In this document: piece by piece, positions 1 through 60,544 of the stretch | Layout: every line of letters begins with the position of its first letter | Numbering within the stretch: the stretch's first letter is position 1 | NCBI GenBank assembly: GCA_023396915.1 | Contig: JAEWUV010000001.1 | Span: 21,206-85,205 of the forward strand | Direction: 5' to 3' | From: Candidatus Parcubacteria bacterium | GTDB taxonomy: Bacteria > Patescibacteriota > Microgenomatia > UBA12405 | Length of the DNA: 64,000 nt | The notes under the pieces: generated by a model | Told to the model about the DNA's origin: nothing | Database searches by the model: none | The model's input: only the letters and a program-made list of their open reading frames with translations | Translations under genes and position numbers: made by a program

Positions 1-818
1 CTTCCTGCCATACTATAAAATGACACATCAGCTTCTCCGGCTACTGCTTTAGCCAACAAAGTTTTCCCCACTCCGCTTGGGCCGACTAACAACACTCCCT
101 TAGGCGCCCTGGCTCCCATTTTTTGATATTTTTCTGGGTGTTTCAAAAAATCAACCACTTCCATCAAATCATCCTTAGCCTCTTTTACCCCAGCCACATC
201 TTTAAAAGTCACATTTTGTTTACCTTTCACAAACAATTTTGCCGTTGATTTACCAAAACCAAACATTCCACCACCAGCTCCACCGGACTGCTTTCTAAAT
301 AACCACAAAATAAAAAGAATCGGAATTCCTATAGTCAGCAATATACTCAAAACATCCCCCATCATCTTCCAACCTTGTCGATTATTTACTTCCATATTTA
401 CTTTAGTCAAATCAATTCCTTCTCTTTGTAATATTTCTGTCAACGAAATCGTCGGTTCTTTGGAGGTTACCATTATTTTTTTATCATCCTTTAGTTGAGC
501 CACAATCTGATTATCCGAAACCATCAAACTCTCCACCTTGTCTTGTTTAATTGTATTTACCAACTCTGAAATAGAAACCTGATTTACTCCTGCCGATTCC
601 AACAAACCTCCCAAACTAGATAATAACCAAAAAATCAAAATCAAATAAATAAACCACTTAATTATTTGTTTTGGCCCAATTTCAATTTTTTTAATTTTTA
701 CCCCCGGTGGCAAATTTTTCAAAAAATCCTCTTCTAACTTCTTGTTTTTACCTATCTCTCCCTTATTTTTTATATCTTTACCCTCAGTTTTTTTCTTCAA
801 AACATCAAATATTTTCAT
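1..818 (-). CDS. ftsH: ATP-dependent zinc metalloprotease FtsH, N-terminal part (runs off the window at coordinate 1). TM segments plus the AAA Walker A motif.
   Basis: Reverse-strand translation from the ATG (complement of 816-818) gives [27 protein letters not shown]...[32 protein letters not shown], the classic FtsH N-terminus and AAA P-loop. Not in the ORF track because it is truncated by the window edge. Confidence 0.8.
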
Positions 819-861
819 CCTGTCATTATACCATCTCAACCAACGTCTATGAATTAATATT

Positions 862-945
862 TTGACGCAGACAATGTTTTTTGCAGGGCGCAGTCTCTGA
901 GTGGATATTACGATGGTTACAAGCCCGAAAAAAATATTGTCGAGT
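862..945. repeat. R2 repeat copy 1 (gcgcagtctctgagtggatattacgatggttacaagcccgaaaaaa core), about 44 nt upstream of the ftsH start.
   Basis: Near-identical to 7730-7830. The shared core is gggcgcagtctctgagtggatattacgatggttacaagcccgaaaaaa. Confidence 0.7.
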
Positions 946-1104
946 CAAAATAAATTTTCAAAATTCGTAACAAAAATTTAAATAAAATTATCTCCGCATT
1001 TTCTCCTTTTTTACTCCGCATCAATATTTTCAAACAAAACCTTCCTCCGGGTAAACCGGTATCCTCCCTTAAAAAAGGAGGAAGTATTCAAGCAAAAAAA
1101 AAGA

Positions 1105-1157
1105 CTGCTCCCTTTTTTAAGGGGAGCTGTCAAACGAAGTGAGACTGAGAGGTTTTT
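1105..1157. repeat. Composite GC-hairpin element, copy A: ctgctcccttttttaaggggagctgtc...gactgagaggttttt. On the minus strand it reads as a hairpin plus U-run, a possible terminator of the 95-aa gene.
   Basis: Same 5' half as the 7021-7077 copy. On the minus strand it reads gacagCTCCCCttaaaaaaGGGAGcagtcttttttttt. Further CCTCC...GGAGG and ccgggtaaaccgg hairpins lie at 1047-1082. Confidence 0.55.
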
Positions 1158-1164
1158 ACTTCAA

Positions 1165-1452
1165 TTAATACTTACTCAATTCTATCAACAAATCTTTATT
1201 ATCATTTCCTGCCGCTTCTACCCAAAAATGATGATTACAGTTCTCGCAATTATAAAAAATTCTAAATTTTCCATTTCGATATTCACTTCTGATCGGCCTC
1301 ATTAATCCTTTGCACATACTCGCCCTATCTCCTGGTATTTCTTCATCCACATGCTTTCCCCAAAGACACTTCGGACAATGATCAGTTGTCCCATTACCTA
1401 TCACTTTCTCCTCACACACTTCACAAACAAAATCTTCCACCACTTTTTTCAT
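1165..1452 (-). CDS. Small Cys-rich zinc-ribbon protein (RNHCP-like; CxxC x4).
   Basis: 95 aa with the pairs CEVC, CPKC, C...C and CENC. Resembles RNHCP-domain proteins. Confidence 0.45.
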   Translation of the reverse strand: MKKVVEDFVCEVCEEKVIGNGTTDHCPKCLWGKHVDEEIPGDRASMCKGLMRPIRSEYRNGKFRIFYNCENCNHHFWVEAAGNDNKDLLIELSKY

Positions 1453-1545
1453 ACCAAAATTATATCTTAAAATTTAAGTCTAAAACCACATTTTTATTTT
1501 TGACGAAGATATTTATTTTAAAAAATTCCATTTTTCACTTATAAA

Positions 1546-1626
1546 AATTCGAAGCTATAATTTTTCAACGAATTTCAACACGCCAGTATTGACTGAGGTG
1601 AAAAATTGATAGCAAGAATTTTAAGT
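1546..1626. repeat. R1 repeat copy 1 (~85 bp: aattcgaa..taatttttYRacgaatttcaacRcg.cagYattgactgagg..aaaaattc...agaattt).
   Basis: One of five copies of an ~85-bp family. It lies 94-174 nt upstream of the minus-strand 95-aa gene start. Confidence 0.75.
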
Positions 1627-1654
1627 AAAAAAAATAATAAATTTATTTTTAAAA

Positions 1655-4618: not shown

Positions 4619-4942
4619 ATCAATATTTTAACCTGTTTTTACTCCTTACTACCAACCAATAACTAATAACTAAACAATACGGTAATATTTCGGTTTATTT
4701 GCGGTTATTAACTATTAAAAATGTATGAACAGCCATGAGAGGGAAGTATCAGAACGTGAAAAAACGTCATAACGTCAATATGTGTATCTGTATTTACAAA
4801 AAATTAAATTCCAAGCTAAAAATCTCAAAAACAAACAGTCTAATAATCAAAATTTACGTTCGAACCTGATTCCAAAGTTGTCAAAACAAAATCATATTTT
4901 GTACATATTCCAAAGCAAAAACAACATCAATAATTTTATATT

Positions 4943-5030
4943 TAAATTCGAAACTATAATTTTTTGACGAATTTCAACGCGACAGCATTGACTGAGGCAA
5001 AAAATTCGTAGTGAGAATTTAAAAAAACAA
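4943..5030. repeat. R1 repeat copy 2.
   Basis: aaattcgaaactataattttttgacgaatttcaacgcgacagcattgactgaggcaaaaaattcgtagtgagaattt. Followed by the shared tail aaaaaaacaaaattgttatcaggccaaaaaat. Confidence 0.75.
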
Positions 5031-5066
5031 AATTGTTATCAGGCCAAAAAATAAAATTATCCAAAC

Positions 5067-6284
5067 CTACTTTCTCTTTACCAACATCCCTGTCATCAAC
5101 ACTACCGCTATCAATTCTGTCAAAACCGTTATCCAAGCCGCTCCATTAATTCCAAAAGAGGGGATTAATAATAAGTTCCCCCCAATATTTACCACCAAAG
5201 AAACTAGACCTACCAACAAAACCTGTTTTTGTTTTCCTAAAGCAATCAAAGTAAAACCCACTAAATGCCCCAAATAAGCAAATATCATCGCTACCAACAA
5301 AATTCTCAAAACCAATACTGATTTTTCAAATCCATTTCCAGACAATACCCCAATAATCCACGGCGCCAAAAAATAAACCACCCCAGACACCACTATTGCT
5401 CCTAGAAACATCAAAACCCCGGTTTGCCAAAAAAGTCTCTTTCTGTCGTTTTGCTTATTCGACAGCATTGGAAATACACTGTTAATCAAATAATATGCTG
5501 GCTGAACCAAGTTCCCATAAATTTTGTACGCCAAACCATAAAAAGCCAAATCTCTTACCCCGATCAACTGTTTAATCAAAATCGAATCTACCGCCCTGTC
5601 GTAACCAGAAAACAAAATCATATACACCCCCATCGGCCACGACTGTTTCAAAAAATTTACCCAAAAAGTTTTATTAGGTCTAACTAGTTTTAACCTACCC
5701 AAAAGTTTACCTGTTAAACCCAAACCAACCCCCAAGCTAATAATCCGGGCTATCAAATAAACCCCAAAAACTCCAATTAAATTAACTTGGGCTTGCCAAC
5801 CGAATAACCAAACCACAAATATTAATGGGAATAAAATATCTATCCATACTTTTAACTCCATTCTCATTTCTGTTTGAAAAATTATTTCCAAACTTCCAGC
5901 CACAGCCGTAAACCCAACCATCAACAAACCCATTAACGCCTCTATTTCTATCCCATCAAAACCACTCCACAGTAAAATTACTCCCAATCCTACCAAAAAC
6001 ATTAGTAGGGAAGCAAACAACCTAAACCAAGCCACCTGAATATAAATTTCTTTTCTTTTTTCTTCGCTTTCTTTTGCTGCCTCCCTAACCCCCATCACTT
6101 TAGTTCCAAAATCAGCTGCCGAATCCAACAGTAGCCACATTGAACCAATCAACATATAATTTCCATAAACTTCCACCCCCAATTTTCTGGTCAAAATCGC
6201 TGTTGTTACCAAACTCAAACCCACAGTAATACATTTCCCCAACACTTGTACCAAGGTGTTCCAAATCGGTTTCTTCATCAACAT
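5067..6284 (-). CDS. Polysaccharide biosynthesis protein / oligosaccharide flippase (Wzx-like, MOP superfamily).
   Basis: Polytopic membrane protein. N-terminus LGKCITVGLSLVTTAILTRKLGVEVYGNYMLIGSMWLLLDSAADFG is typical of Wzx/PST-family flippases. Confidence 0.6.
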   Translation of the reverse strand: MLMKKPIWNTLVQVLGKCITVGLSLVTTAILTRKLGVEVYGNYMLIGSMWLLLDSAADFGTKVMGVREAAKESEEKRKEIYIQVAWFRLFASLLMFLVGLGVILLWSGFDGIEIEALMGLLMVGFTAVAGSLEIIFQTEMRMELKVWIDILFPLIFVVWLFGWQAQVNLIGVFGVYLIARIISLGVGLGLTGKLLGRLKLVRPNKTFWVNFLKQSWPMGVYMILFSGYDRAVDSILIKQLIGVRDLAFYGLAYKIYGNLVQPAYYLINSVFPMLSNKQNDRKRLFWQTGVLMFLGAIVVSGVVYFLAPWIIGVLSGNGFEKSVLVLRILLVAMIFAYLGHLVGFTLIALGKQKQVLLVGLVSLVVNIGGNLLLIPSFGINGAAWITVLTELIAVVLMTGMLVKRK

Positions 6285-6312
6285 AAATCTATTTTATCCT
6301 AAAATTTTTATT

Positions 6313-6400
6313 TAAATTCGAAATCGTAATTTTTTAACGAATTTCAACACGCCAGTATTGACTGAGGTAAAAAATTCATGATGAGAATTTAAAAAAATAT
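6313..6400. repeat. R1 repeat copy 3, 29-116 nt upstream of the flippase start.
   Basis: aaattcgaaatcgtaattttttaacgaatttcaacacgccagtattgactgaggtaaaaaattcatgatgagaattt, then tail aaaaaaatattaccaagccgaaaaat. Confidence 0.75.
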
Positions 6401-6418
6401 TACCAAGCCGAAAAATTT

Positions 6419-7690
6419 TTAAACCAGTGCTAATACCAAAGACAACAGCCACATGTTCTGGGGTAGGGTAAACCAATAATGATCTACCATCCCACTCATA
6501 AAAATTACCCCCAATACCACCCAACTCCATTTACCCAAGTCTCCCCATTTAATCTTTTTAGCCAATAACAAAATTGTTCCCATTAATCCCAAAATTCCTA
6601 CCTCTGACACCAAAAGCAAAAATATATTATGTACCGGTTGTAACCAAAAAGTATGGTTATTTTTTAAAACATTAGGCAAATTAGCCAAATAATTTCCCAG
6701 CCCTACTCCTACCCAAGGTGATTGTCGAATCATTTCTATTGCCGCTAAATTTAATTGACCTCTTTTGATCATTCCATTCTCATCCCACCCACCAAAAAAA
6801 TTACCCAAAGGATAATTAAAATCAACCAATTTTAATAAAAACAAAATTAAAATTAATCCCAATACTACAAATTTAATTTTATTTCTGATTTTCCAATCAT
6901 TTTGCCAAAACCAAAAACACATTACTCCCAAAGTTAAAAACCAAATTGTTCTACTTCCAGTCAAAAATATTCCCATCAATCCCAACCAAAATACCCCCCA
7001 CCATTTAATTTTTTCTAAGACTGCTCCCTTTTTTAAGGGGAGCTGTCCCGATTTATCGGGACTGAGAGGTTTGTTCCTTATCCACCACACCAACCCCACT
7101 AACAAAAAACCAGCCAAACTATTCGGGTGAGAAAAAGTTCCATAAGCCCTTACTAAACCTGTATTAACCACTGACATTTGAGCAATTCCTATTGTATTAA
7201 AATCAAATCTTCTTTCACCCAAAAACCACCACAAACCATTCAAACTTCCACCTTTAGATATTTGTCCCAATGCTAAAAGTGACTCAAGTATTATCCAATA
7301 GGGAATAACTTTAATCATAATATCTCCAACAATTCTCTTATTTTTTACTACCCAAAACCAAAAATAACCCAATTCCACCACTCTCAACCACTTATAAACC
7401 GCCACCCATTTATTAATCGACACTAAAATATTTATCCCCACAAAAACTAATCCCAATAAACACCAAAAACTAACCTCCCATTTCCTCTTCTTACTTTCTG
7501 CCAACAAATTAGTTATTAACCAAAGTACAAAGACTAAATCTACTAAATAAAAAGTCGGTGAAAAATAATCAATCCTTATTCCCAACACTGTCGACCAATC
7601 AAACCAAAAATGTTTTCCCAATTGTGTTGGAATTAACAAAATCAACCAAAACAACAAAATTTTTGTCACCTTACCCCAAAATCCTTTCAC
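6419..7690 (-). CDS. O-antigen ligase/polymerase-like (Wzy_C family) membrane protein carrying an in-frame hairpin-repeat insertion.
   Basis: C-terminal motif PVHNIFLLLVSEVGILGLMG (H-N...E.G..G) is typical of the O-antigen ligase family. Polytopic. Residues RNKPLSPDKSGQLPLKKGAV are encoded by repeat copy B at 7021-7077. Confidence 0.6.
   Translation of the reverse strand: MKGFWGKVTKILLFWLILLIPTQLGKHFWFDWSTVLGIRIDYFSPTFYLVDLVFVLWLITNLLAESKKRKWEVSFWCLLGLVFVGINILVSINKWVAVYKWLRVVELGYFWFWVVKNKRIVGDIMIKVIPYWIILESLLALGQISKGGSLNGLWWFLGERRFDFNTIGIAQMSVVNTGLVRAYGTFSHPNSLAGFLLVGLVWWIRNKPLSPDKSGQLPLKKGAVLEKIKWWGVFWLGLMGIFLTGSRTIWFLTLGVMCFWFWQNDWKIRNKIKFVVLGLILILFLLKLVDFNYPLGNFFGGWDENGMIKRGQLNLAAIEMIRQSPWVGVGLGNYLANLPNVLKNNHTFWLQPVHNIFLLLVSEVGILGLMGTILLLAKKIKWGDLGKWSWVVLGVIFMSGMVDHYWFTLPQNMWLLSLVLALV
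7021..7077. repeat. Composite GC-hairpin element, copy B (ctgctcccttttttaaggggagctGTCCCGATttaTCGGGACtgagaggtttgttcc), in frame inside the ligase-like CDS.
   Basis: First 27 nt are identical to copy A at 1105. The second hairpin CCCGAT-tta-ATCGGG is shared with the copies at 25641 and 19314. Confidence 0.7.
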
Positions 7691-7729
7691 AACCCAATCT
7701 TACCACAAAGCCAAAAGTTTAATTGTAAT

Positions 7730-7830
7730 TTTGGCGCAGATAATATTTTTGAAGGGCGCAGTCTCTGAGTGGATATTACGATGGTTACAAGCCCGAAAAA
7801 ATTGTTATCAAGCCAAAAAATTACAATAAA
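7730..7830. repeat. R2 repeat copy 2 plus the shared tail, about 40 nt upstream of the ligase-like gene start.
   Basis: ttttggcgcagataatatttttgaagggcgcagtctctgagtggatattacgatggttacaagcccgaaaaaattgttatcaagccaaaaaat. Confidence 0.7.
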
Positions 7831-7842
7831 AATATTATGTAC

Positions 7843-8313
7843 TTAAGCCTTTGGCTTAATCACCACATGCCTTTGTTCACCTTCGCCTTCCGACTCACTT
7901 ACCACCCCTTCCATTTCCGAAATCACCATATGACAAATCCGTCTTTCATAAGAACTCATATTAGCCAAAGCCACATCTTTATTGCTTACCAAACATTTCT
8001 CAGCCAGACCTCTCACCATATTTGTCAATCTTTCTTTTTGTTCATTTCGATAGTTATTAATATCAAGAAGAACTCTGACTTCTTCACCGACTTGATTCCG
8101 CACTATCAAAGCCAAAATTAACTGCACTGCCGCCAAGTTTCTTCCTCTAAAACCAATTAATCCTGCCGGATTAGCTACTGTAATTCCCACTAATACTTGA
8201 TTTTCTTCACCCTCAACGTCTTCCACAAAGGCTTTTTCCACTTCAAAATTGATCTGTGCCAAAAAATCACAAGTAAGTTGTAAGATTTTTTCATTTCTTT
8301 TTTTATTATCCAT
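7843..8313 (-). CDS. jag: Jag/KhpB-like RNA-binding protein (KH + R3H).
   Basis: R3H-like C-terminus (LTNMVRGLAEKCLVSNKDVALANMSSYERRICHMVI). Sits in the conserved yidC-jag position next to the origin. Confidence 0.7.
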   Translation of the reverse strand: MDNKKRNEKILQLTCDFLAQINFEVEKAFVEDVEGEENQVLVGITVANPAGLIGFRGRNLAAVQLILALIVRNQVGEEVRVLLDINNYRNEQKERLTNMVRGLAEKCLVSNKDVALANMSSYERRICHMVISEMEGVVSESEGEGEQRHVVIKPKA

Positions 8314-44581: not shown

Positions 44582-44625
44582 TTCCCCTCCTTTCCTCAAA
44601 GGAGGGGAATAAGTGGTAGATTTTG
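44582..44625. repeat. GC-hairpin element copy G (CCCCTCCtttcctcaaaGGAGGGGaataagtggtagatttt). Likely a terminator for the upstream + gene.
   Basis: 7-bp GC stem with a U-rich loop, followed by a T-rich tract. Confidence 0.55.
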
Positions 44626-44675: not shown

Positions 44676-44969
44676 CTAATTTTTATTTTTCCCCGCCCAC
44701 AAATTCAACCCACCAATCACCATCGCCGGCATATAAATTACCCACGCTTCCAAACTCATCACCATAAAAGCTATTTCCAAAACCAGCCACAAAATCCCTC
44801 CCAAAACCTCTTTCTTCCACGAAATTATTGTCACTATTATCAATACAAAACTCGGTATCAAATGCATCATCAACGCCACCAACCATTGTTCTTCTCCAAC
44901 CACATCCACCACAAACAAACTAATAAACAAAATAAAAACTATCGATAATATCCTAGTTATTTTCTTCAT
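44676..44969 (-). CDS. Small membrane protein (97 aa, 3 TM). Last gene of the island operon.
   Basis: Hydrophobic helices. Overlaps the fic stop region. Confidence 0.4.
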
Positions 44970-45819
44970 AATAATAAGAATAATCTATTCCTTTCATAAA
45001 TATTTCCCGACTATTAATTTTATTAGTTAAAGCCTTTTTTAATAATTTTTTTATTTCACTATTATCTTTCGGGCTTTGTATCATCGCTTTTAGATAATCA
45101 TTTTTGCCTATTTTGCTCCAGTCAACGCATTTTTTTAGCTGTTTTTTAAAAATCAAATCCAACCAGATCCGGGTAGTTCTACCGTTACCTTCCATAAATG
45201 GATGAGCCAGATTCATCTCCACATATTTATCGGTAATTTGGTTAAAAGTATCTTGAGGCATTTGCTCAATCTGTTTTAGAGTATTGTCTAAAAATTGAGC
45301 CATGGCAAATTGAAACCCGCCTTTTGATATATTTTTTTGCCTGATTTGCCCGGCAAAATTATATAATCCACCAAACAAATAAGCATGGATCTGTTGCAAA
45401 CCTTTAATTGTACCGATTTCTATTTCATCTATTAAATTACTTTCAAACAAAGCATAAGCTTTTTTCTTGCTTTGCCCATCAATAGTATTGTCACTATAAG
45501 TAAACCAATCAAGAAACGACATAGATTTTTTACTCGGAATTGCTTTTACCACCTCAACAATGTCATCTTGTGAAAAACAATCAGTAGCGTATTTTTTCCC
45601 ATCTGATGCGACTAATTTCAGTTGCCTACATTTTGTAGTCAACTGATTTCCTTCTTTTTTTAATCGTGTTTTCAACACACTCCAATATTTTCGTGGATTC
45701 GCACTTTCCGTCAAAGCAGCCACGATATCAAGAACTGAAAACCACCACTTATTTTTCTCTTCATCCCAAACCGCCCGCACTTCTTTATCATCAAAAAACC
45801 GAATTGATATTTTATCCAT
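44953..45819 (-). CDS. Fic/DOC-family protein with an N-terminal BRO-N/DinD-like domain.
   Basis: Fic motif [12 protein letters not shown] (HPFx[DE]GNGR). N-terminus [34 protein letters not shown] resembles BRO-N/RhuM-N. Confidence 0.8.
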
Positions 45820-45845: not shown

Positions 45846-46607
45846 TTATTTAATCTTTTCAACTGCCTTCACATAATTGCAGTAATCACAATCAGCACTA
45901 GATTCAGGAATTTCTTTGCTATTCAAACACTTATAAATATCCTTAATCGTTTGCTCAATCCAATCAGTCTTGCCAGTATAAGGTAGTAATTTAATATCAA
46001 ATTCCAATTTTCCATCAAAAGCCACTCTATCAGTTTTCCCGTTACAATAGACAAAATAGCCAGTATCCGACACCTCAAAACCATTTTTTCTAAATAGCCA
46101 CTGATACACTTCCATCTGTCTTTTGTATCCATCTTGCCATTCCGCATCCAAGTTTACTTCACTTTCTTTTGATGTCGATTTGTAATCTACAATTATCAAT
46201 TCATTTTTTGAATTAATCCAAACATCATCGACTGCTCCAGTAATTAACAAATTAGTTTCTGGATCCAAATAGGTAATTCCTTTAAAATTTTCTCGCCATT
46301 CATCCATTTTTGGATGTTCAAAAGGTACTGCATCCAATCCATAAGCTTTCATCAATGGGTGAGTTGTATGTTTATTTCTATGAATATCAAATTCTTTTTT
46401 AAGCAGCTTATCAACCGCTGAATTTAATGAAAAGGGGAATCCTGGTGGTTGGGCAATTCCAAGCACTCGATCCAAATAAAAACACCTTGGACATTTTATA
46501 AACAAATCAATCTTCGACCGACTTATCTTAAACGCTTGTCGGCCTGTGGCCGAGTTTTTTCCTTCATACAATCCCAGTTGTCTGTTTGGCTTATAGTATT
46601 GCGACAT
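45846..46607 (-). CDS. PD-(D/E)xK nuclease with a 4-Cys (Fe-S) cluster, Cas4/AddB-nuclease-like.
   Basis: N-terminal CPRCFYL, core IIVDYKS (D...(D/E)xK), C-terminal CDYCNY. This is the Cas4-type Cx(n)CxxC arrangement. Confidence 0.65.
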   Translation of the reverse strand: MSQYYKPNRQLGLYEGKNSATGRQAFKISRSKIDLFIKCPRCFYLDRVLGIAQPPGFPFSLNSAVDKLLKKEFDIHRNKHTTHPLMKAYGLDAVPFEHPKMDEWRENFKGITYLDPETNLLITGAVDDVWINSKNELIIVDYKSTSKESEVNLDAEWQDGYKRQMEVYQWLFRKNGFEVSDTGYFVYCNGKTDRVAFDGKLEFDIKLLPYTGKTDWIEQTIKDIYKCLNSKEIPESSADCDYCNYVKAVEKIK

Positions 46608-46662: not shown

Positions 46663-47541
46663 CTAAGCAATCCTAAAAATTGCAGTATCCGAAGGCTGGA
46701 ACTCACTGTGTTTAATGTATTTCTTTAATGAAAAAAAATCTTCATTATTTGATGACAATATTTTTGGTGTAATTGTACCTTCTTTGATATGTACATCAAT
46801 ATTTTTATCTTTGCAAAATTTTATTACGTAATTTACCATAGAATTATAAAACTCTTTGACACCAACTTGATTAGAAATCATACTATTATAATTCCATCTA
46901 CCAAACACAATTTTATCCACAAATGAAATCGACTCCAAGATAGTCTTAATGTCTTGCTTTACTATATTTGATGTTGGATATGGTTCCATACTAACCCATG
47001 TTTTTAACCCAGATTTATGTAGCTCTTTTAGAGACTCTATTCTCTTTTTAATCGGAGCAGCTCCAGGTTCAAATTTCTTCCTATATTCTTCTGATAACGA
47101 AACTATTGTTGAACCATATTCGTTTAAAGAATTATATTTACTAGCGTTAATTAATTCTTTTGGATATATCCCTTTTGTTATTATTGTTGACCTTATACCA
47201 TAAGTATTTAATTTTTCTAGTATTTTCAACGTCAATTTAATAACTTCTAGTTGTTTATACATAAATGGATCAGATGAAAAACACAAAAACACACAGTGGA
47301 TTTTATTTTTTAGTCTTGGAAGTTCTTTATCCAATAATTCCATTGCATTTCCAACAATTTTTGGGGATATCCACTCATTATAACTTTTAACGACTCCACA
47401 TCTTTTTTTCATCATGTATGCATAACAGGGAAATTTACATCCATGAGAACAACCTTCGATATGATTCAATCCATAATCCGCATATTCGACATTACTTTTG
47501 TATAGAAGTGATTTACGATTTATTTTAGGTAAACTTTTCAC
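46663..47541 (-). CDS. Three-Cys-motif (CSHGCKFPC = Cx3Cx3C) radical-SAM-like protein.
   Basis: GCSHGCKFPCYAY near the N-terminus. Paired with the RlmJ/TcmP-like gene 21 nt upstream. Confidence 0.45.
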   Translation of the reverse strand: MKSLPKINRKSLLYKSNVEYADYGLNHIEGCSHGCKFPCYAYMMKKRCGVVKSYNEWISPKIVGNAMELLDKELPRLKNKIHCVFLCFSSDPFMYKQLEVIKLTLKILEKLNTYGIRSTIITKGIYPKELINASKYNSLNEYGSTIVSLSEEYRKKFEPGAAPIKKRIESLKELHKSGLKTWVSMEPYPTSNIVKQDIKTILESISFVDKIVFGRWNYNSMISNQVGVKEFYNSMVNYVIKFCKDKNIDVHIKEGTITPKILSSNNEDFFSLKKYIKHSEFQPSDTAIFRIA

Positions 47542-47562: not shown

Positions 47563-48486
47563 TTACTTTGGAGTATAGTCTTCTTTATCAAACATATACA
47601 TTTGTCCTGTGTATGTGGATTTATCTTTATTTTTAAATATATGGTCTATTATTTTTTTTGCACTTGGACATCTTGATGCAAATAAAAGAAAATAGGAGGT
47701 TTCATTTTTATTCGGTCTTAACATTTGGTATACAGATAATTGATTTAATTTTGAATCAGCAAATATTTCTTTAATAATCATCAACATTAAATCTTTGTCT
47801 TTTTTACTAAAACTATCAGTTAATGATTCAATCTCATGAAGCGATTTTACAGAATTTAATAGTTTTTCTATTTTTTCTTTATTTCCATTGTTACTAATTA
47901 ATTTCTTTACATAAGCCAAAACTCTCGATGTTCCACAAATATAGTTTAATATCAAATCATTAGGGCTTTTCTCTCCACGGCTTACTATTTGTTTTATTGT
48001 TTCTTTCTTTATTTCTTTTGGTCCCCACGGATCAATAAAAAATAAAACTGGTCTATATTTTATTTTTTCAATAATATTTCCAATTTCTATATTAATATCA
48101 CCCAGTATAAGATCAATATTAACAAATTTTCTGTAAGGTTCACAAAAATTCTCCAATTCTTTAACTGATTTTTTATTTTTTTCAACAAAAATACAATTCA
48201 GCTTTACAGTTCCAGAGTGTTTCAAATAAAGAGATTTTGCATATTCTAAGGCAATTAATGGAGATCCATTTATCGAATCCATTATTCCATTATTGTGATA
48301 CATTCCTCTCCCAGCATAACAGTCTATATAATAAGCAGTTTTTGCCCATTGTTTTTGATGATTTAGATATTGAGCAAAAATAATAGTAGCCCATTTATTA
48401 AGATATTCTTTTAAAATTTCCAATTTTCTTTTAGTATGGGGTCTATTTGTTATATCCCAATAATTACTTTTATTCATAAAACACAA
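47563..48486 (-). CDS. RlmJ-like / TcmP-like protein (putative N6-adenine methyltransferase fold; 'three-Cys-motif partner protein').
   Basis: YIDCYAGRGMY, GSPLIALEYAK and LFFIDPWGPKE parallel RlmJ motifs (YLDTHAGAGRY, GSPLIA, LIDPPYE). Its start is 1 nt after the upstream RM-like gene stop. Confidence 0.5.
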   Translation of the reverse strand: MCFMNKSNYWDITNRPHTKRKLEILKEYLNKWATIIFAQYLNHQKQWAKTAYYIDCYAGRGMYHNNGIMDSINGSPLIALEYAKSLYLKHSGTVKLNCIFVEKNKKSVKELENFCEPYRKFVNIDLILGDINIEIGNIIEKIKYRPVLFFIDPWGPKEIKKETIKQIVSRGEKSPNDLILNYICGTSRVLAYVKKLISNNGNKEKIEKLLNSVKSLHEIESLTDSFSKKDKDLMLMIIKEIFADSKLNQLSVYQMLRPNKNETSYFLLFASRCPSAKKIIDHIFKNKDKSTYTGQMYMFDKEDYTPK

Positions 48487-48487
48487 T

Positions 48488-51400
48488 CTATTTTACATTT
48501 TCTTCTGTAATTTTAATTTCTTCCTCAATTTTTAAATATACTTTATCAATTCTAATTTGAATTTCTTTTGTTAATTTTAATACTGTCACCACCCTACAAT
48601 AATGTCGAATATCTTCATCTGATAAAGTTTTTTCCACCCTATCTTTAAGCCACTTATCTAATACTTGATATCCGCCAATATAATAATTCCAAATCTCAGG
48701 AGTAACATCATCAAAATATTGAGAATCATTTATATAAACACGATTGTTTTCTAGATCGTATTTTCTTTTGTTAACTTTTCCTTCTCCCTGACCAAAAAAT
48801 CTTGTAGAAGGGTTATCTAATTCTGATGAATTTAATAAATGTAGATTTATTAAATCTTCACCTAAAGAAGATAGTAATTGAAAAGTTTCTAAGTTTTCTG
48901 TAAAAGGAATCCTAGGAAAATCTATTTTTAAAAATTCTTTGTATTTCTCTCGATAGATATTTGAATAAAGAATCGCATAAATATAATAAAAAATTGCCTC
49001 ATTTGTTTGAATAAAATTACCTGATATTTTTGATGCGAATGATGGAACTTGTTGGATAAAATTTGGTAACTTTGACCAGTTGTAATTTGACGACCTAATT
49101 TTTGATTCCGACAACTCTTGTTGAGAACTGTAAATATAAAGTGGAAATGTATATGCCGAATCTTGAGCATTATCTAAATAATGAAAATCGGTTATGGTAT
49201 TTGTTATACCAAAATAATTTAAACTTAACTGACGGTTTCTTTTAGCAGATATTAATATCAAATTGTTCCGCATAAAAATATGTTTTGTAACTTCATTGCG
49301 TACTCTCCATATAGCAGATGGATGATTGAATATCCAACGATTATCAAATGGTCTATAACTGTAGTTTGAATAATATTTATTAATATTCTCAAGATTTTTT
49401 AATTTCAATTTTGTTTCAGGAATTCGTTCAGAATAAATCTTACTTAATTTAAAAGTATTTTTAATAAATTCATCATCACCAACACTGTTTATAAAACTAT
49501 TAATTTTTGTTTCGAGTTTATGTTTATCAAAATCAATCACAAAGTTATCATTCGCGGTTAGAATACCAGTACTATAAATATTAAAAATATCCGTTAAAGG
49601 TATAAACTTTTGGTATTTTTCATTACCTTCTTCATTTCTTGGAACTAAGAAATAATAAGGTTTAGATGGAATTAATTTTTGCCATTTTGTTGTTGTAATA
49701 TCATTTGATTCAAGCCATTTATATTTATCTTCACGTAAACCCCATTGATCACAATAGAATATTTGTTTAGTTTTAACAGGTGTCTTACATAATAAAACAA
49801 TAGATACTCCAGTTTGAATATCAAAAACATTTTCGTCTTTTTTACCTTCAGGTGTCTTTTCCTTTTTAAGGATACTACCGTGTAAATTAACAACATATAT
49901 TTCATTAAAAGTATTTAACATGGAATATCTCATACCACGGAAAGTTGGATTATCAAGCCAAGCATGATTAGTAATAAATCCTAAAATTCCCTGTTTATTT
50001 TGTTCAATCTTCCATTGAGAAAATCTGAAAAATTTTACATAATCATCTTGCAACCAATCTTTTTTTTCATTTAATTTTTCTCCCTCAATCTGGCGATATT
50101 CATTAATTTCCCCCAGTATCCAATCTCCTTTATTTGTAGAAACAGCTGAATAGGGTGGATTACCCATAATAACCATTACCTTTTTATTTTTTTTAACATC
50201 ATTAGCTTGACGAGATTCTTCTGATAAATCAGAAAATAATGGAAGATCCATGTGTGGAAGATTATTCAAATCAAGCGTATTAGTTAAAAAAAGATTAAAT
50301 CGTTCATACTGCCCTAATTTATATTTGTGTTCATCAAAAATCAAAGATGCTTTAATGTGTCCTAAAACATAAGGTGACATCATTAATTCAAAAGCAAAAA
50401 AATGAGGGATAATATGATTTTTTATCAAATTATTAATTCCTCCATCACCATATCTGTTTTTATATTCATCTATGGCTACTTTAATTGCTTCAATCGGAAA
50501 GGTTAATGTACCAGCAGCAGGATCAAGTAAAGTTACTGAATTACTAGCTAATCCATCCGGTCTTTTAAATTTTTTTTGAAGAATTTTATGAACTGAATTT
50601 ACTATATATTTAACTACTGGCTCCGGTGTGTAATATACTCCTCTTTTTGCCCTCTCTTTTGGATCATACTCAGCAAGAAAAGTTTCATAAAAATGGATAA
50701 TAGGATCATTACCCTTACCATTTAAATAATAATTATCAACAATCTTTGTAACATCCGTGTTTTTAAGTAATTCGGCAATATCGTCAATAATCCATTCCAT
50801 ATTTTTAGGTAAATCGTTAGATGAAATGAAACGAAATATGCTTCTTAAAACTCCAATTGTAGATGGAATAGTTTTAAAAGCATTTAAACGATTAAAATCT
50901 GATGATGATCGAAGACGAGCTGCGAATAAACCAAAAGTAATGGTTTGAGAAAACAAATTTGCAAAATCATCAAGATTTAAAGAGGATATTAAATATTCTT
51001 TGAACAGTTTATAAATTCCCTCAAGTGTTTGAGTTCCAGTTTGTGTTTCCTCTTTTAACTCCTCAATAATGCAGTTTTCTTTAAGAAAACTAGTTCTTTT
51101 AGCAAGTTCTATTGCTAAAGTTTTAGCTGTATTGATTTTTGGAGTAGAAAAAGAGAAAAATTCAGCTAATAACTTTTGGAGATATAACTCATTTTCTACC
51201 GGCGGAACAATCCCAAGCTGATTAAGGATAACAGGACGACCTATCATTACTTTATCTATTTGTTCTCCGTTGCGGTAAAGTCTAAATTCGAGAAAATTTG
51301 TCAAAATCAAATTAGGGAAAGTTTTAAGGTATCTTTGTAGTTGTTCTGTTTGTTCTATAGCGTCGAGGTTTTCAATATTTGGTTCTTTTGCTTCTATATA

Positions 51401-51607
51401 ACCAATAAGTTGATATTTCTGAGTTTGAATTCTGAAATCAGGATTTCCTGCTTCAGTTTTTTTAGGCAAAATAGTTACACTAATTTCTTTTTTATTTTGG
51501 ATTGCATAAGCCTCAATTAATTTTTTCAGATCTGGGTAATAACTTTCTTCACGAACATCTCCAGCGTTAGTAGTCGCAGACAAATCAGATAAATATTCTT
51601 TAAACAT
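48488..51607 (-). CDS. MmeI-like type IIL/IIG restriction-modification enzyme: N-terminal PD-ExK nuclease, gamma-class N6-adenine methyltransferase, C-terminal target-recognition region.
   Basis: NPDFRIQ...GYIEAKEP (PD...ExK), MTase motif I LLDPAAGTLTF, motif IV MGNPPYS. 1039 aa. Very AT-rich codon usage. Confidence 0.75.
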   Translation of the reverse strand: MFKEYLSDLSATTNAGDVREESYYPDLKKLIEAYAIQNKKEISVTILPKKTEAGNPDFRIQTQKYQLIGYIEAKEPNIENLDAIEQTEQLQRYLKTFPNLILTNFLEFRLYRNGEQIDKVMIGRPVILNQLGIVPPVENELYLQKLLAEFFSFSTPKINTAKTLAIELAKRTSFLKENCIIEELKEETQTGTQTLEGIYKLFKEYLISSLNLDDFANLFSQTITFGLFAARLRSSSDFNRLNAFKTIPSTIGVLRSIFRFISSNDLPKNMEWIIDDIAELLKNTDVTKIVDNYYLNGKGNDPIIHFYETFLAEYDPKERAKRGVYYTPEPVVKYIVNSVHKILQKKFKRPDGLASNSVTLLDPAAGTLTFPIEAIKVAIDEYKNRYGDGGINNLIKNHIIPHFFAFELMMSPYVLGHIKASLIFDEHKYKLGQYERFNLFLTNTLDLNNLPHMDLPLFSDLSEESRQANDVKKNKKVMVIMGNPPYSAVSTNKGDWILGEINEYRQIEGEKLNEKKDWLQDDYVKFFRFSQWKIEQNKQGILGFITNHAWLDNPTFRGMRYSMLNTFNEIYVVNLHGSILKKEKTPEGKKDENVFDIQTGVSIVLLCKTPVKTKQIFYCDQWGLREDKYKWLESNDITTTKWQKLIPSKPYYFLVPRNEEGNEKYQKFIPLTDIFNIYSTGILTANDNFVIDFDKHKLETKINSFINSVGDDEFIKNTFKLSKIYSERIPETKLKLKNLENINKYYSNYSYRPFDNRWIFNHPSAIWRVRNEVTKHIFMRNNLILISAKRNRQLSLNYFGITNTITDFHYLDNAQDSAYTFPLYIYSSQQELSESKIRSSNYNWSKLPNFIQQVPSFASKISGNFIQTNEAIFYYIYAILYSNIYREKYKEFLKIDFPRIPFTENLETFQLLSSLGEDLINLHLLNSSELDNPSTRFFGQGEGKVNKRKYDLENNRVYINDSQYFDDVTPEIWNYYIGGYQVLDKWLKDRVEKTLSDEDIRHYCRVVTVLKLTKEIQIRIDKVYLKIEEEIKITEENVK

Positions 51608-51656: not shown

Positions 51657-52178
51657 ATGGAATATTTAATTATCATTGTTTTAATGGTTGTACTTTTTAA
51701 GATTTTTTATAAACGCATTTTTATACAAGATGAATCAGAAAGTCATAATAAAAAATTTTCAAATTCATCCAAAATCACTCCAGGCAATTTTCGACTTCGT
51801 CCATCACTTTTAAATAGTAATGAACGAGTCTTTTTTGAACAACTCAAATTAGCAGTAGGGAATCAATACGATATCTATCCTCAAACTTCTTTAAGTGCTA
51901 TTTTTGAACCAATTGAACATTGGAATAACTGGGGTGATCTAAGTCGTTTGAACAAAAGAATTGATTTTGTTTTGTTTGACAAAAATACTCAAACTCCAAA
52001 GATTGCTATCGAGCTAGACGGTGACTCCCATTCTAAGTTTAAAAGTATTAAACGTGATGAATTTGTTGGCGATCTTTTTGAAAAATTTAATATTCCTTTA
52101 GTCCGCTTTAATAATGGCAATTATTCTGCCGAAGAGATTAAAAACAAACTTTCTATTTTTCAATTACTTTCTTTTTAA
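51657..52178 (+). CDS. DUF559/Vsr-like PD-(D/E)xK endonuclease-domain protein with an N-terminal TM helix.
   Basis: RIDFVLFDKNTQTPKIAIELDGDSHS...KRDEF...NIPLVRF is the DUF559/DUF2726 signature. Convergent with, and overlapping, the RhuM gene's 3' end. Confidence 0.55.
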   Translation: MEYLIIIVLMVVLFKIFYKRIFIQDESESHNKKFSNSSKITPGNFRLRPSLLNSNERVFFEQLKLAVGNQYDIYPQTSLSAIFEPIEHWNNWGDLSRLNKRIDFVLFDKNTQTPKIAIELDGDSHSKFKSIKRDEFVGDLFEKFNIPLVRFNNGNYSAEEIKNKLSIFQLLSF

Positions 52179-53163
52179 CTTTTTTCTCTACTGCTTTGAT
52201 ACTTTCCAAATAATCTTCTTCCACCGGTGACAGAGTTTTTATTTGATATTTTTTATATTCTGCCAAGGCTTTTACTTCAGCTTCAATTTTGCTGATTTTA
52301 CCGGCATTTTGTAATACAGTTCTGTCCATTGAAACCACCAACTTATCCAATTGATTTATATAATCTTCCATAGTTGTCTGTATTCCGTCAATTGCCCTCA
52401 ATTCGGCGATGTCAAAATAAGCCGATACTATATTATTTAATTTTTTAAGTTCCTGTTCGGTCAAATAATTTTTAGCCACAGTTATATCGGATTTTCTGAC
52501 TCCGTCTTTTGAAAAAGTCATCAATCCCATAAATGGTTTATCTGCATCAGCCCGTTCAGAAATTAATTCAGATGCTGTTTTTCCGTTGGCAGCATAATGA
52601 AGTTTATTTTGTACTATGGCAAAAAACTTTTTCGATTCCTGACTTTGTGGATTGTAATCAATACTGGTGGCATACAAATCTAATACTTGTCTGTACAAAA
52701 CCTTTTCACTACTACGAATATCCCGAATTCTATCCAAAAGCTCTTTCCAATAATTTCCACCACCATTATTTTTTAGTCGCTCATCATCCAAAGTAAAACC
52801 TTTAACAATATACTCGCGAAGTCGTGCCGTTGCCCATTGGCGAAAACGAGTCCCTTCTATTGAACTAACCCTATACCCAACAGAAATGATAACGTCCAAA
52901 TTGTAATGTTTTACGACATATTCTTTACCATCAGATCCAGTCCGTCGGAATTCCCGACATACTGAATTTTCTTCCAATTCTCCTTCATTAAAAATATTTA
53001 AAATGTGTTCAGTAATAGTAGATCGACCTTTATTAAACAGTTCAGCAAGCTGATCCTGATTAAGCCATACTGTTTCACTCTCTATTCGTACCTCAATTTT
53101 CGGCTGACCGCCGTCTCCTTGATAAATAATTATTTGGTTATCCGGTTGTTTATTTTTATCCAT
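52153..53163 (-). CDS. RhuM-family (DinD-like) protein.
   Basis: KIEVRIESETVWLNQDQLAELFNKGRSTITEHILNIFNEGEL...YNLDVIISVGYRV...FRQWATARLREYIVKGF matches RhuM-family hallmarks. Confidence 0.8.
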   Translation of the reverse strand: MDKNKQPDNQIIIYQGDGGQPKIEVRIESETVWLNQDQLAELFNKGRSTITEHILNIFNEGELEENSVCREFRRTGSDGKEYVVKHYNLDVIISVGYRVSSIEGTRFRQWATARLREYIVKGFTLDDERLKNNGGGNYWKELLDRIRDIRSSEKVLYRQVLDLYATSIDYNPQSQESKKFFAIVQNKLHYAANGKTASELISERADADKPFMGLMTFSKDGVRKSDITVAKNYLTEQELKKLNNIVSAYFDIAELRAIDGIQTTMEDYINQLDKLVVSMDRTVLQNAGKISKIEAEVKALAEYKKYQIKTLSPVEEDYLESIKAVEKKVKKKVIEK

Positions 53164-56028: not shown

Positions 56029-56610
56029 TTACAAAACCAATTTTGCCTTCGTCGGTTTCATTAAGTATTTGTATAATTTTTCTGTTTTTTCTTCTAATTC
56101 TTTCAAACTACATTCCGTATCAATTACCACATCCGCTTTTTTCTTTATCAAACTTTCTTTACTTTGGTTTTTAATCCTTAAATTAATCTCTTTATCAGTC
56201 AAATTATTTCTCTTTTTTATTCTCTTTTTTCGTTCATCAATTTCACAAACTGTCACTATATTTTTTACCATGTCCTTGTTTTTGCCGGTTTCAAACAAAA
56301 TCGCTGTTTCCACTAAAACTATTTTTTCTTCACTTAGTTTTTTAATTAATTTATCTAATTTTAACCATACCTTAGGGTGAATTAAACTTTCAACCTCTTT
56401 TTTCTTTTTTGAATTTTTAAAAATAATTTCTTTATTTTTTCCCCAAATTTTTTCCAAGCTTTTTTTAATTTTACTTATTTTACTTATTTTTTTTGCCTCT
56501 GCATCACAGTCAAAAACTACTATATTAGAATATTTTTTTTGTAACATTTTTGCCACCGTACTTTTTCCACTTCCAATTCCACCAGTTAACCCAAAAATTT
56601 TTTTAGTCAT
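56029..56610 (-). CDS. coaE: Dephospho-CoA kinase. Start taken at MTKKIFGLTGG; the track extends to 56652.
   Basis: P-loop GLTGGIGSGKST. Confidence 0.8.
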   Translation of the reverse strand: MTKKIFGLTGGIGSGKSTVAKMLQKKYSNIVVFDCDAEAKKISKISKIKKSLEKIWGKNKEIIFKNSKKKKEVESLIHPKVWLKLDKLIKKLSEEKIVLVETAILFETGKNKDMVKNIVTVCEIDERKKRIKKRNNLTDKEINLRIKNQSKESLIKKKADVVIDTECSLKELEEKTEKLYKYLMKPTKAKLVL

Positions 56611-57700
56611 TTTTATAAAAAGCGGCGATAGCCACTCCCTGAGCACAGGCATTAATACTCATGTCATCGCCACACAAAACCGGTTGTTCTCCTTTTGCTT
56701 TATCTATTATTTGACTAACTCTATTCATTACTCCCGGCACTCTAAAACCACCACCATGGTAGGCTACTACTGTGTCTCCGGCTTTAGTCATTAAATTATT
56801 AATGTTAGCCACTCCAACTATTCCACAAGCGAGCAATATTGCCGAATTTTCATAAAGTTTTTTGGCCAGTTCATCACCTTGTTGGTATTTATTACTTATT
56901 TCTATTCCACTCAAACTCTCTCCGGTTATTTTTTTATAAATACTTTCCACTCCGGCTCCACTAGCCGCCACTCTTTCAATACAAACATAATCTCGTCCCA
57001 ACAAACCACATGGGGTATCTTGTTTATGCCAATTTAGTTCATCTGCCAATCTGGTATGACCCACTTCAGTGGCAATGATTTTATTGTTTTTTATAAACGC
57101 TAACCCAAATCCACCCCCATCTATTACAAATTCCAACGACCCGTTTTCTTTCATTTTGCCGCTTATTCTGGCTTCTACTGCCGCAGTTTTAATTCCCGCC
57201 TGAGCATCATTATTAACTGCTTTTAAAGTCGGGAACAAATTGGCAAAATCTCCATTATATTTTCTGTCTAAATCAGCTTTAAAATCAGTCGCATTGGGGA
57301 TTCCCTGAGGGCATGTTCCTGTCAAAGGTCCAGCAAAAGAAATTGCTACATTCATTTTTCTTACTCTTGCTTCCTCAGCCGCTTTTTCAAAAAATTCTGT
57401 ATAGTTAGCTCCCTTATCTATTTTTTTAACTCTTTCAATTGAATTAGTGTCGGCTACCAATCGTCCCTTAATTATTTTCCAAAAAATCCTAGTTACCTTA
57501 TCTCCACCCATATCTACTGTTAACAATTCGGCTCCTTCATTATCTTGAATTAATCTTATCGCCTTATCCGGATTAAACTCTTCCACTTCCTGTTGAAATA
57601 CATTCTCAGGTACAAATAATTTCATCTGTTCATCGGGCAAATTTGGCACTTCTGCCAAAGTCAATAAATCTTTTCCCAAAGACGTATCTATGCAATGCAT
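56603..57700 (-). CDS. ASKHA-superfamily sugar kinase (ROK/BadF-like, N-acetylglucosamine-kinase-like).
   Basis: VDMGGDKV, DGGGFGLAF, HGGGF gly-rich ATPase motifs. Confidence 0.5.
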   Translation of the reverse strand: MHCIDTSLGKDLLTLAEVPNLPDEQMKLFVPENVFQQEVEEFNPDKAIRLIQDNEGAELLTVDMGGDKVTRIFWKIIKGRLVADTNSIERVKKIDKGANYTEFFEKAAEEARVRKMNVAISFAGPLTGTCPQGIPNATDFKADLDRKYNGDFANLFPTLKAVNNDAQAGIKTAAVEARISGKMKENGSLEFVIDGGGFGLAFIKNNKIIATEVGHTRLADELNWHKQDTPCGLLGRDYVCIERVAASGAGVESIYKKITGESLSGIEISNKYQQGDELAKKLYENSAILLACGIVGVANINNLMTKAGDTVVAYHGGGFRVPGVMNRVSQIIDKAKGEQPVLCGDDMSINACAQGVAIAAFYKND

Positions 57701-59137: not shown

Positions 59138-60544
59138 ATGAAACAAACATCTGTTGTTGATTTTTCTTCTTATACCTCTCCTTTTACTTGGCGTTACTCC
59201 TCTCCCGAAATGCGTTTTCTCTTTAGTGAAGAATATAAATTCAAAACCTGGCGTCAACTTTGGGTGGCTTTAGCCGAATCTCAATACAAATTAGGTCTAA
59301 TTAGTAAACAAGAATTTTTAGATTTAAAAAATAATCAAGACAATCTCGACATCGACAGAATTTTAGAAATCGAAAAAGAAACCAAACACGATGTGGTTGC
59401 CGCTATCAAAGAATTTAGCGAAAAAGCCACAGTCGGTGGGGGGAAGATTCATTTAGGGGCTACCAGTATGGACATTAATGATAATGCCGAAACTTACCGC
59501 ATTAAACAAGCCTTAGATTTAATCGAAAGCAAAGTAAAAGATATTCTCAAACTTTTTTCCCAAAAAATTAATGAATTTATTGATGTTCCTTGCATTGGTT
59601 ATACTCATCTTCAACCAGCCGAACCAACCACTATTGGTTACCGCTTTGCTCTTTATGCTCAAGATTTATTAATCGATTTTAATTTCCTTCAATTTGTCAA
59701 AAAAGAATTAAAGACCAAAGGTTTTAAAGGCGCTGTTGGCACTGCCGCCAGTTATGACGAACTATTTAATCACAAACATTCTGACACTCAAAAAATGGAA
59801 GATTTAATTATGAAATCTCTCGGACTCGAGGCTTTTTTAATTACTTCCCAAACCTCTACCAGAAAAATTGATTACCTTCTTCTATGTCTCCTTTCATCAA
59901 TTGCCTCAACTCTTGCTAAATTTTCTGGTGATCTTCGAATTCTCCAATCACCTAACAATGGCGAATGGCAAGAACCTTTTTCATCAACTCAAGTTGGATC
60001 TTCAGCCATGCCTTTCAAAAAAAATCCCATAAGTTCCGAAAAAATTTGTTCTTTAGCTCGTTATATTAGTACTCTTCCTCAAGTCGCTCTCGAAAATGCT
60101 ACCCTTTCGTATCTCGAGCGAACTCTTGATGATTCAGCTAATCGCCGCATTATTATTTCTGAAAGCTTTCTAGCTCTTGATGAAATTTTAATTACCGCCC
60201 AAAAAAATATTTCCGGGCTTATTATTAACAAAACCAAAGTCCAACAAAACTTTGACAATTTTGCTCCTTTTGCCGCTACCGAATCAATTATTATCGAATC
60301 AGTCAAAAAAGGTGCCAATCGCCAGGAAATGCACGAAACCCTCAGACAATTATCTCTAACTGCTTGGGCCGAAATCCAACAAGGCAAATCAAATCCGCTC
60401 AAAGAACTTATTATTAACAACCCCGAAATTAAAAAATATTTATCAGAAATTGAAATAAATAGTCTTTTTAATCTGAATTCTCACTTGGGGACTGCTACTA
60501 TTCGTTCCCAAAAACTAGTCAAACTTATCAATCAAATCCTCTAA
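59138..60544 (+). CDS. purB: Adenylosuccinate lyase.
   Basis: Fumarate-lyase family (GATSMDINDN, SSAMPFKKNP signature region). Confidence 0.85.
   Translation: MKQTSVVDFSSYTSPFTWRYSSPEMRFLFSEEYKFKTWRQLWVALAESQYKLGLISKQEFLDLKNNQDNLDIDRILEIEKETKHDVVAAIKEFSEKATVGGGKIHLGATSMDINDNAETYRIKQALDLIESKVKDILKLFSQKINEFIDVPCIGYTHLQPAEPTTIGYRFALYAQDLLIDFNFLQFVKKELKTKGFKGAVGTAASYDELFNHKHSDTQKMEDLIMKSLGLEAFLITSQTSTRKIDYLLLCLLSSIASTLAKFSGDLRILQSPNNGEWQEPFSSTQVGSSAMPFKKNPISSEKICSLARYISTLPQVALENATLSYLERTLDDSANRRIIISESFLALDEILITAQKNISGLIINKTKVQQNFDNFAPFAATESIIIESVKKGANRQEMHETLRQLSLTAWAEIQQGKSNPLKELIINNPEIKKYLSEIEINSLFNLNSHLGTATIRSQKLVKLINQIL

Follow-up and report, generated by a model that had tools for sequence, protein, structure and literature searches.

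The single-polypeptide restriction-modification (RM) enzyme DrdV, a Type IIL enzyme from Deinococcus wulumuqiensis (PDB 7LO5 and 7LVV), has the site CATGNAC and cuts at 10/8, and is to our knowledge the only DrdV-type member that has been studied structurally so far. It is also the closest full-length relative of solved structure for a protein of 1039 amino acids (aa) encoded in a 64,000-nucleotide stretch of contig JAEWUV010000001.1 from Candidatus Parcubacteria bacterium (assembly GCA_023396915.1), which is called here the window. The gene for this protein, the RM gene, very probably encodes a functional single-polypeptide Type IIG/IIL RM enzyme of the DrdV kind. It is an ordinary, uncharacterized member of a known enzyme class. 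Its kinship is with DrdV and not with MmeI, the enzyme with which an earlier reading of the letters alone (the original prediction) had compared it.

The cryo-electron microscopy structure of DrdV provides the most direct comparison. In this structure E25, D64, E79 and K81 coordinate the metal and the scissile phosphate, K81 being essential, and N448, Y451, F304 and F562 hold the flipped adenine (bioRxiv 10.1101/2021.01.06.425610). In the MmeI family the nuclease has a Glu before helix 2, a D at strand 2 and an ExK motif on strand 3; after it come a helical arm and an N6-adenine methyltransferase, with no flanking methyltransferase; cleavage is 20(±1)/18 nt downstream, and membership is defined by significant similarity (E<1e-20) to MmeI across the entire length (Morgan et al. 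2009, PMC2731913). Type ISP enzymes have a helicase-like ATPase between nuclease and methyltransferase, and cleavage follows once the enzymes have translocated and collided (PMC4872093).

Relationship of the protein to DrdV

The reading frame in the original prediction is real and intact. The sequences GAGG and AGGGA are found just 5′ of its ATG. Because approximately 8% of random codons are stops at 28% GC, an open frame of 1039 codons is far beyond chance (~1e-39 by simple arithmetic). Besides a 906-kb metagenome scaffold, 15 other contigs carry an identical annotated protein, and the homologues span 99–100% of its length.

A search of the PDB sequences with the RM protein gave significant matches only to LlaBIII, DrdV and LlaGI. 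A family profile made from 120 homologues was also scored against the PDB sequences, and gave E-values of 1e-77 for DrdV, 5e-75 for LlaBIII and 3e-66 for LlaGI, with the DrdV match covering aa 307–991, that is, the methyltransferase and the target-recognition domain (TRD). An AlphaFold2 (AF2) model was made from the 120-sequence alignment, with a mean predicted local distance difference test score (pLDDT) of 83.7. The best Foldseek matches of this model are the DrdV chains, which align over the full length (E 5e-40, ~1110 aligned columns); below them come Type ISP enzymes (~1e-35), CamA and MmeI (~6e-13), BpuSI (1e-11) and BrxX/PglX (~1e-10). The PADLOC model REase_MTase_IIG (PDLC03610) matches the RM protein with 834 bits, which together with the full-length DrdV fold match and the solitary homologues described below bears out the one-polypeptide Type IIG/IIL organization that was originally proposed. 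The only Pfam matches at E<=10 are N6_Mtase (aa 301–489) and Type_ISP_C (PF18135, aa 673–1013, E 2e-72), and NCBIfam has no meaningful model for the protein.

The homology to DrdV extends over the nuclease, connector, methyltransferase and TRD, and is remote. The two proteins are nearly equal in length (1029 aa in DrdV), have the same domain order of nuclease, helical connector, methyltransferase and TRD, and both lack an ATPase. The helical connector corresponds to that of DrdV and to the ‘arm’ of MmeI. In both HMMER alignments E20, D57, E72 and K74 of the RM protein align with E25, D64, E79 and K81 of DrdV, and the four DrdV residues N448, Y451, F304 and F562 correspond to N483, Y486, Y325 and F595. 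There are two differences in the motifs: motif I of the methyltransferase contains GTLTF in the RM protein and GTGTF in DrdV, and after the ExK motif the RM protein has QxxxY, whereas DrdV uses K94. The protein would best be labelled a remote DrdV-like Type IIL/IIG enzyme.

Several points weigh against this assignment. The identity to DrdV is only ~20%, and the N-terminal alignment (aa 2–126 against DrdV 6–129) is weak when taken alone, with 15.3 bits, an E-value of 0.031 and a conditional E-value of 1.8e-7. The GTLTF of motif I departs from the canonical GTGTF. A promoter scan of 44.5–53.3 kb gave 42 sites, compared to 47.7 from shuffled sequences, and no promoter could be assigned. Finally, only 10 nt separate the RM gene from a downstream pair, TcmP and its radical-S-adenosylmethionine (radical-SAM) partner, with which it may thus be co-transcribed and to some extent functionally coupled.

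Domain organization and proposed mechanism

The features of the locus are listed in Table 1. Residue conservation was assessed in the 120 homologues, which have 50–84% identity to the RM protein, and in a second set of 64 more distant full-length relatives, with 32–58% identity in the nuclease region.

Table 1. Features of the RM gene, its product and the surrounding locus (window coordinates)
Feature	Position (nt)	Residues (aa)	Strand	Basis or remark
RM gene, complete	48488..51607	1–1039	-	Open reading frame list and translation; ATG start; stop codon 48488-48490
PD-(D/E)XK nuclease domain	51218..51607	1-130	-	Conservation, DrdV alignment, AF2 model
Predicted catalytic residue		E20	-	Invariant in 120 homologues
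Predicted catalytic residue	51437-51439	D57	-	Invariant in 120 homologues
Predicted catalytic residues	51386-51394	E72-A-K74	-	E72 and K74 invariant in 120 homologues
Predicted catalytic residues	51329-51343	Q89xxxY93	-	Q89 and Y93 invariant in 120 homologues
All-helical connector	50708..51217	131-300	-	AF2 secondary structure, helices H140-296
Gamma-class N6-adenine methyltransferase	49688..50707	301-640	-	N6_Mtase Pfam, conserved motifs
Methyltransferase motif X region, GVYYTP		323-328	-	
Methyltransferase motif I, DPAAGTLTF	50498-50524	362-370	-	
Methyltransferase motif IV, NPPY	50150-50161	483-486	-	
TRD (Type_ISP_C)	48491..49687	641-1039	-	Pfam
TRD hypervariable core	48968-49447	721-880	-	Identity drop among homologues
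Conserved TRD motif, DFPRIPF		896-902	-	
TcmP gene	47563..48477		-	TIGR04474, 138 bits; 10 nt after RM stop codon; no Pfam domain
Radical-SAM protein gene	46663..47541		-	Downstream of TcmP
Cas4-like PD-(D/E)XK nuclease gene	45846..46607		-	
Bro-N + Fic gene	44953..45819		-	NmFic-type adenylyltransferase, PADLOC PDC-S04
Terminator-like hairpin	44582..44609		-	Strong; 12-bp stem (6 GC pairs), then T-rich tail; closes the block that starts with the RM gene
DUF2726 gene	51657..52178		+	
RhuM-family gene	52153..53163		-	PADLOC PDC-S05

The first 130 residues of the model fold into a canonical PD-(D/E)XK core of the topology helix–three strands–helix–strand, with pLDDT values of 84–96. The elements are a helix (20–37), strands at 42–46, 58–62 and 67–73, a second helix (88–96) and a last strand (99–103). 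E20 opens the first helix, D57 directly precedes strand 2, E72-x-K74 ends strand 3 and Q89xxxY93 lies on the following helix, a placement which we take to resemble motif III of the Type I HsdR nucleases; one homologue (locus L098) has a weak match to HSDR_N. E20, P56, D57, E72, K74, Q89, R92 and Y93 are invariant in the 120 homologues. In the distant set E20, D57, E72, K74, Q89 and Y93 are retained in 61–64 of the 64 relatives, and the first four of these residues in 62–64. The PD...ExK signature noticed in the original prediction is therefore well founded, since its residues are both invariant and aligned with the catalytic set of DrdV.

All of the motifs listed originally could be located (NPDF at aa 55–58, EAK at 72–74, and the DPAAGTLTF and NPPY motifs of the methyltransferase), and motif I and NPPY, like GVYYTP, are conserved in the homologues; in the first two, D362, P363, G366, T367, F370, N483, P484, P485 and Y486 are invariant. 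The GTLTF form, which has L for the second G of the canonical GTGTF, is the consensus of the subfamily (115 of 120 homologues), and both forms are found in the wider family. The connector contains no Walker A or DEAD motif in a motif search, and no helicase Pfam domain matches the RM protein even at E<=10. Because aa 131–300 are all-helical and have neither such motifs nor a helicase match, the motor of the Type ISP enzymes is absent.

Domain order, intact motifs and stand-alone occurrence are seen directly in the protein and its homologues, and the mechanism that would go with them is inferred by homology with DrdV. The methyltransferase and TRD would clamp a short asymmetric site, with one adenine flipped into the NPPY pocket. 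With S-adenosylmethionine this adenine would be methylated slowly, on one strand only, which would protect the host DNA. Where a DNA carries several unmethylated sites, the site-bound molecules would oligomerize and exchange their N-terminal nuclease domains, and the exchanged nucleases would then cut both strands to one side of the site, always the same distance away. By analogy, the enzyme is inferred to mark the DNA of its host cell by methylation and to cut unmarked foreign DNA. Its specificity would be seated in the hypervariable core of the TRD, which appears to be exchanged between close relatives.

Distribution and alternative readings

By the family profile, at least 597 species-representative genomes, from many bacterial phyla and some archaea, contain relatives. 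The nuclease–connector module alone gives 1987 cluster representatives at 50% identity; the full-length proteins that carry it begin with this module and range from 974 to 1540 aa (median 1051). The homologues that were inspected on long contigs, including P0016 and P0024, stand by themselves, and neither a methyltransferase nor a helicase gene adjoins them.

Identity to the homologues is ~60% in the nuclease, connector and methyltransferase, and 26–32% in aa 721–880. This divergence is the pattern expected of a recognition domain whose specificity is exchanged. The closest relative, P0002, has 84% identity overall, 89–93% in the first three domains and 51% in aa 721–880, as though its recognition domain had been swapped. 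Its gene occupies the same chromosomal slot of related genomes, between DUF2177 and MatE genes, and has different neighbors. The enzyme thus adds an uncharacterized and widespread subfamily to the DrdV-type Type IIL enzymes, and the pair with P0002, which differs mainly in aa 721–880 of the TRD, is a natural experiment for specificity determinants that would be useful for engineering. The finding is thus of more practical than conceptual value.

The description of the protein as MmeI-like holds for its architecture and fails for family membership. The protein resembles the MmeI family in functional architecture, in the secondary-structure layout of the nuclease (Glu before helix 2, a D opening strand 2, ExK on strand 3) and in its gamma-class N6-adenine methyltransferase; it has the helical arm, the N6-adenine methylation motifs and no flanking canonical DNA methyltransferase, and MmeI (PDB 5HR4) is among its fold matches. 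The fold match is however far weaker than that of DrdV, and the TRD belongs to the Type_ISP_C family. No sequence relationship to MmeI is detectable: none of the MmeI_N, hel, Mtase, TRD or C Pfam models matches at E<=10, and 5HR4 is missed at the same threshold both by phmmer and by the family profile. Since membership is defined by similarity to MmeI over the full length, the RM protein lies outside the family, and the chance that it is a true relative of MmeI and NmeAIII, cutting ~20/18 nt from its site, is very remote. Even less probable, to the point of being scarcely credible, is a Type ISP enzyme that translocates on DNA by means of an ATPase motor. The methyltransferase–TRD half is closest to those of LlaBIII and LlaGI (PDB 4XQK, 5FFJ), which are close solved relatives of this half, it carries a Type_ISP_C domain, and names given to homologues in their source databases include ‘type ISP restriction/modification enzyme’ and ‘predicted helicase’. 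The RM protein nevertheless has no helicase or ATPase domain, the gap between its nuclease and methyltransferase being a helical linker of 170 aa; it has ~1040 aa compared to 1400–1580 aa for Type ISP enzymes, and there is no neighboring helicase gene. The public names in question (the first from NCBI, the second from JGI) are attached to P0004, P0011, P0014, P0016 and others. They are misleading for motor-less proteins of ~1040 aa, and presumably arise from the Type_ISP_C domain or from a COG assignment.

A different kind of explanation is that the protein is the methyltransferase and recognition part of a multi-gene system and does not restrict alone, its partners being the TcmP, radical-SAM and PD-(D/E)XK genes, or its role being that of the methyltransferases of BREX (PglX), DISARM or MADS. 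The tight packing of genes on the same strand up to the terminator-like hairpin would suit such a system, as would a weak match to PADLOC mad2 (1e-13) and the two other lineages, described below, in which TcmP and radical-SAM genes follow an RM gene. We consider it decidedly unlikely, given that TcmP and the radical-SAM gene are missing at 78 of 80 genome loci of RM homologues and at the closest relative P0002, that P0016 and P0024 are solitary, that the TcmP/radical-SAM pair is found alone elsewhere, that the nuclease of the RM protein is itself invariant, and that there are no BREX, DISARM or helicase genes within 10 kb. PglX in particular was considered and rejected: it has no nuclease and needs other BREX genes (brxA/B/C/Z/L), whereas the RM protein keeps a conserved nuclease, has no PADLOC PglX match, and BrxX/PglX structures rank far below DrdV. 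No BREX genes are near the RM gene, whose neighbors are RhuM, DUF2726, TcmP, radical-SAM, PD-(D/E)XK and Fic genes. The outcome named beforehand as refuting the original prediction, a PglX or a nuclease-less HsdM as best homologue, did not occur, as DrdV is the best structural match and the nuclease residues are present. It is also quite unlikely that the gene is an inactive or methylation-only remnant, whether as an orphan methyltransferase or through silencing in vivo. The non-canonical GTLTF might point this way, and certain characterized Type IIL genes, DraRI among them, show no activity in their hosts (PMC2731913). Yet the reading frame is unbroken from end to end, hundreds of relatives share the nuclease and methyltransferase residues, GTLTF is a trait of the subfamily and not a private mutation, and diversification focused on the TRD argues for continuing selection on specificity. 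A tandem-repeat search found no simple-sequence tracts in the RM gene, and there is therefore no sign of phase variation that might have switched it off.

The downstream TcmP/radical-SAM cassette and the surrounding island

Five genes are packed on the minus strand (RM, TcmP, radical-SAM, Cas4-like PD-(D/E)XK and Bro-N/Fic), followed by one small open reading frame and then by the terminator-like hairpin. No terminator-like site was found between the RM, TcmP and radical-SAM genes. The model of TcmP (pLDDT 85.9) has a class I SAM-methyltransferase fold, the closest PDB structure being that of the rRNA m6A methyltransferase RlmJ (E 6e-7, template modelling score ~0.4); its invariant motifs are D-x-x-A-G-x-G, GSPLIAL and F-x-D-P. 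The statement in the original prediction that there is no separate methyltransferase is therefore correct only in part: among the called genes within ~10 kb on either side, the Pfam list contains no N6_Mtase, C5 or N4 methyltransferase gene and thus no canonical DNA methyltransferase, but the adjacent TcmP has a methyltransferase fold.

The motif of the radical-SAM protein, CSHGCxxPC (47425..47451, aa 31–39), has the spacing CxxxCxxxC and not the canonical CxxxCxxC. The same motif is present in the TcmP-partnered radical-SAM proteins of L089, L090 and L091; in L086, whose partner protein is distant, the spacing is canonical. The radical-SAM protein has weak matches to the DUF5131, ‘radical SAM mobile pair protein B’, PA0069 and Rv2578c families, and together with TcmP it matches the PADLOC candidate systems PDC-M41A/B and PDC-M30A.

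The linkage between the pair and the RM gene was tested by tblastn of TcmP and the radical-SAM protein over 88 loci. Obligate linkage can be rejected, as the association turned up solely in the source contigs and, by way of the radical-SAM protein, in L086, where TcmP has diverged too far to be picked up by tblastn and was recognized with NCBIfam. Among 80 metagenome TcmP loci, the radical-SAM gene follows TcmP almost wherever the contig permits, and most loci have no RM gene; the three close TcmP relatives in L089–L091 likewise have the pair without it. In L091 (6001..7796) the pair is inserted into the str operon, between rpsG (S7) and fusA (EF-G), where a mobile cassette would not usually be expected. 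It is concluded that TcmP and the radical-SAM protein form a self-contained cassette, separate from the RM gene. The RM family does precede the pair in three independent lineages with very divergent TcmPs: directly in the window and in L086, and at a distance of 2 kb in L098/L099, with an S24 peptidase gene between. These juxtapositions are treated here as clustering within defense islands, and a functional unit of the RM enzyme and the pair is judged highly unlikely. If there were such a unit, the pair could introduce a second kind of nucleic-acid modification, one that is radical-SAM-dependent, or act as a repair or backup function cooperating with restriction based on one-strand m6A.

The same slot carries different neighbors in related genomes, and the locus is therefore a variable defense island, of low GC content, which the RM gene marks in this host. 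The GC content of the RM gene is 28.3%, compared to a mean of 33.8% for the window, and it forms the largest part of a block of 26–29% GC at ~47–51 kb. It was originally described as the most AT-rich gene of the window, but is in fact the third, being exceeded by the TcmP open reading frame (47563..48486, 25.6% GC) and by the one at 56029..56652 (27.2% GC). In the related genomes L003–L005 an RM gene of 84% identity lies by the same DUF2177 flank. The island, which extends over ~44.6–53.2 kb here, contains in those genomes two proteins of unknown function (781 and 322 aa), an AAA protein, DUF1508, an HTH-SocA/Panacea pair, a PD-(D/E)XK gene 67% identical to the one in the window, and Fic and Bro-N genes. 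Immediately upstream of the RM gene, the DUF2726 and RhuM genes overlap tail to tail, and this pair is probably another module of the same island. The tRNA search of the window was negative, and consequently the island has no tRNA-linked boundary.

The host is tentatively taken to be an uncultured bacterium, probably of the small-genome Patescibacteria type, to judge from the adenylosuccinate lyase mentioned next; a scaffold of ~0.9 Mb agrees with this. Two further features of the window may be mentioned. The GC skew is -0.42 to -0.55 per kb in positions 1..8000 and negative across almost the whole window, far beyond what gene strand bias alone would suggest. The adenylosuccinate lyase encoded at 59138..60544 has its nearest named relatives in Roizmanbacteria and Patescibacteria, with ~63% identity.

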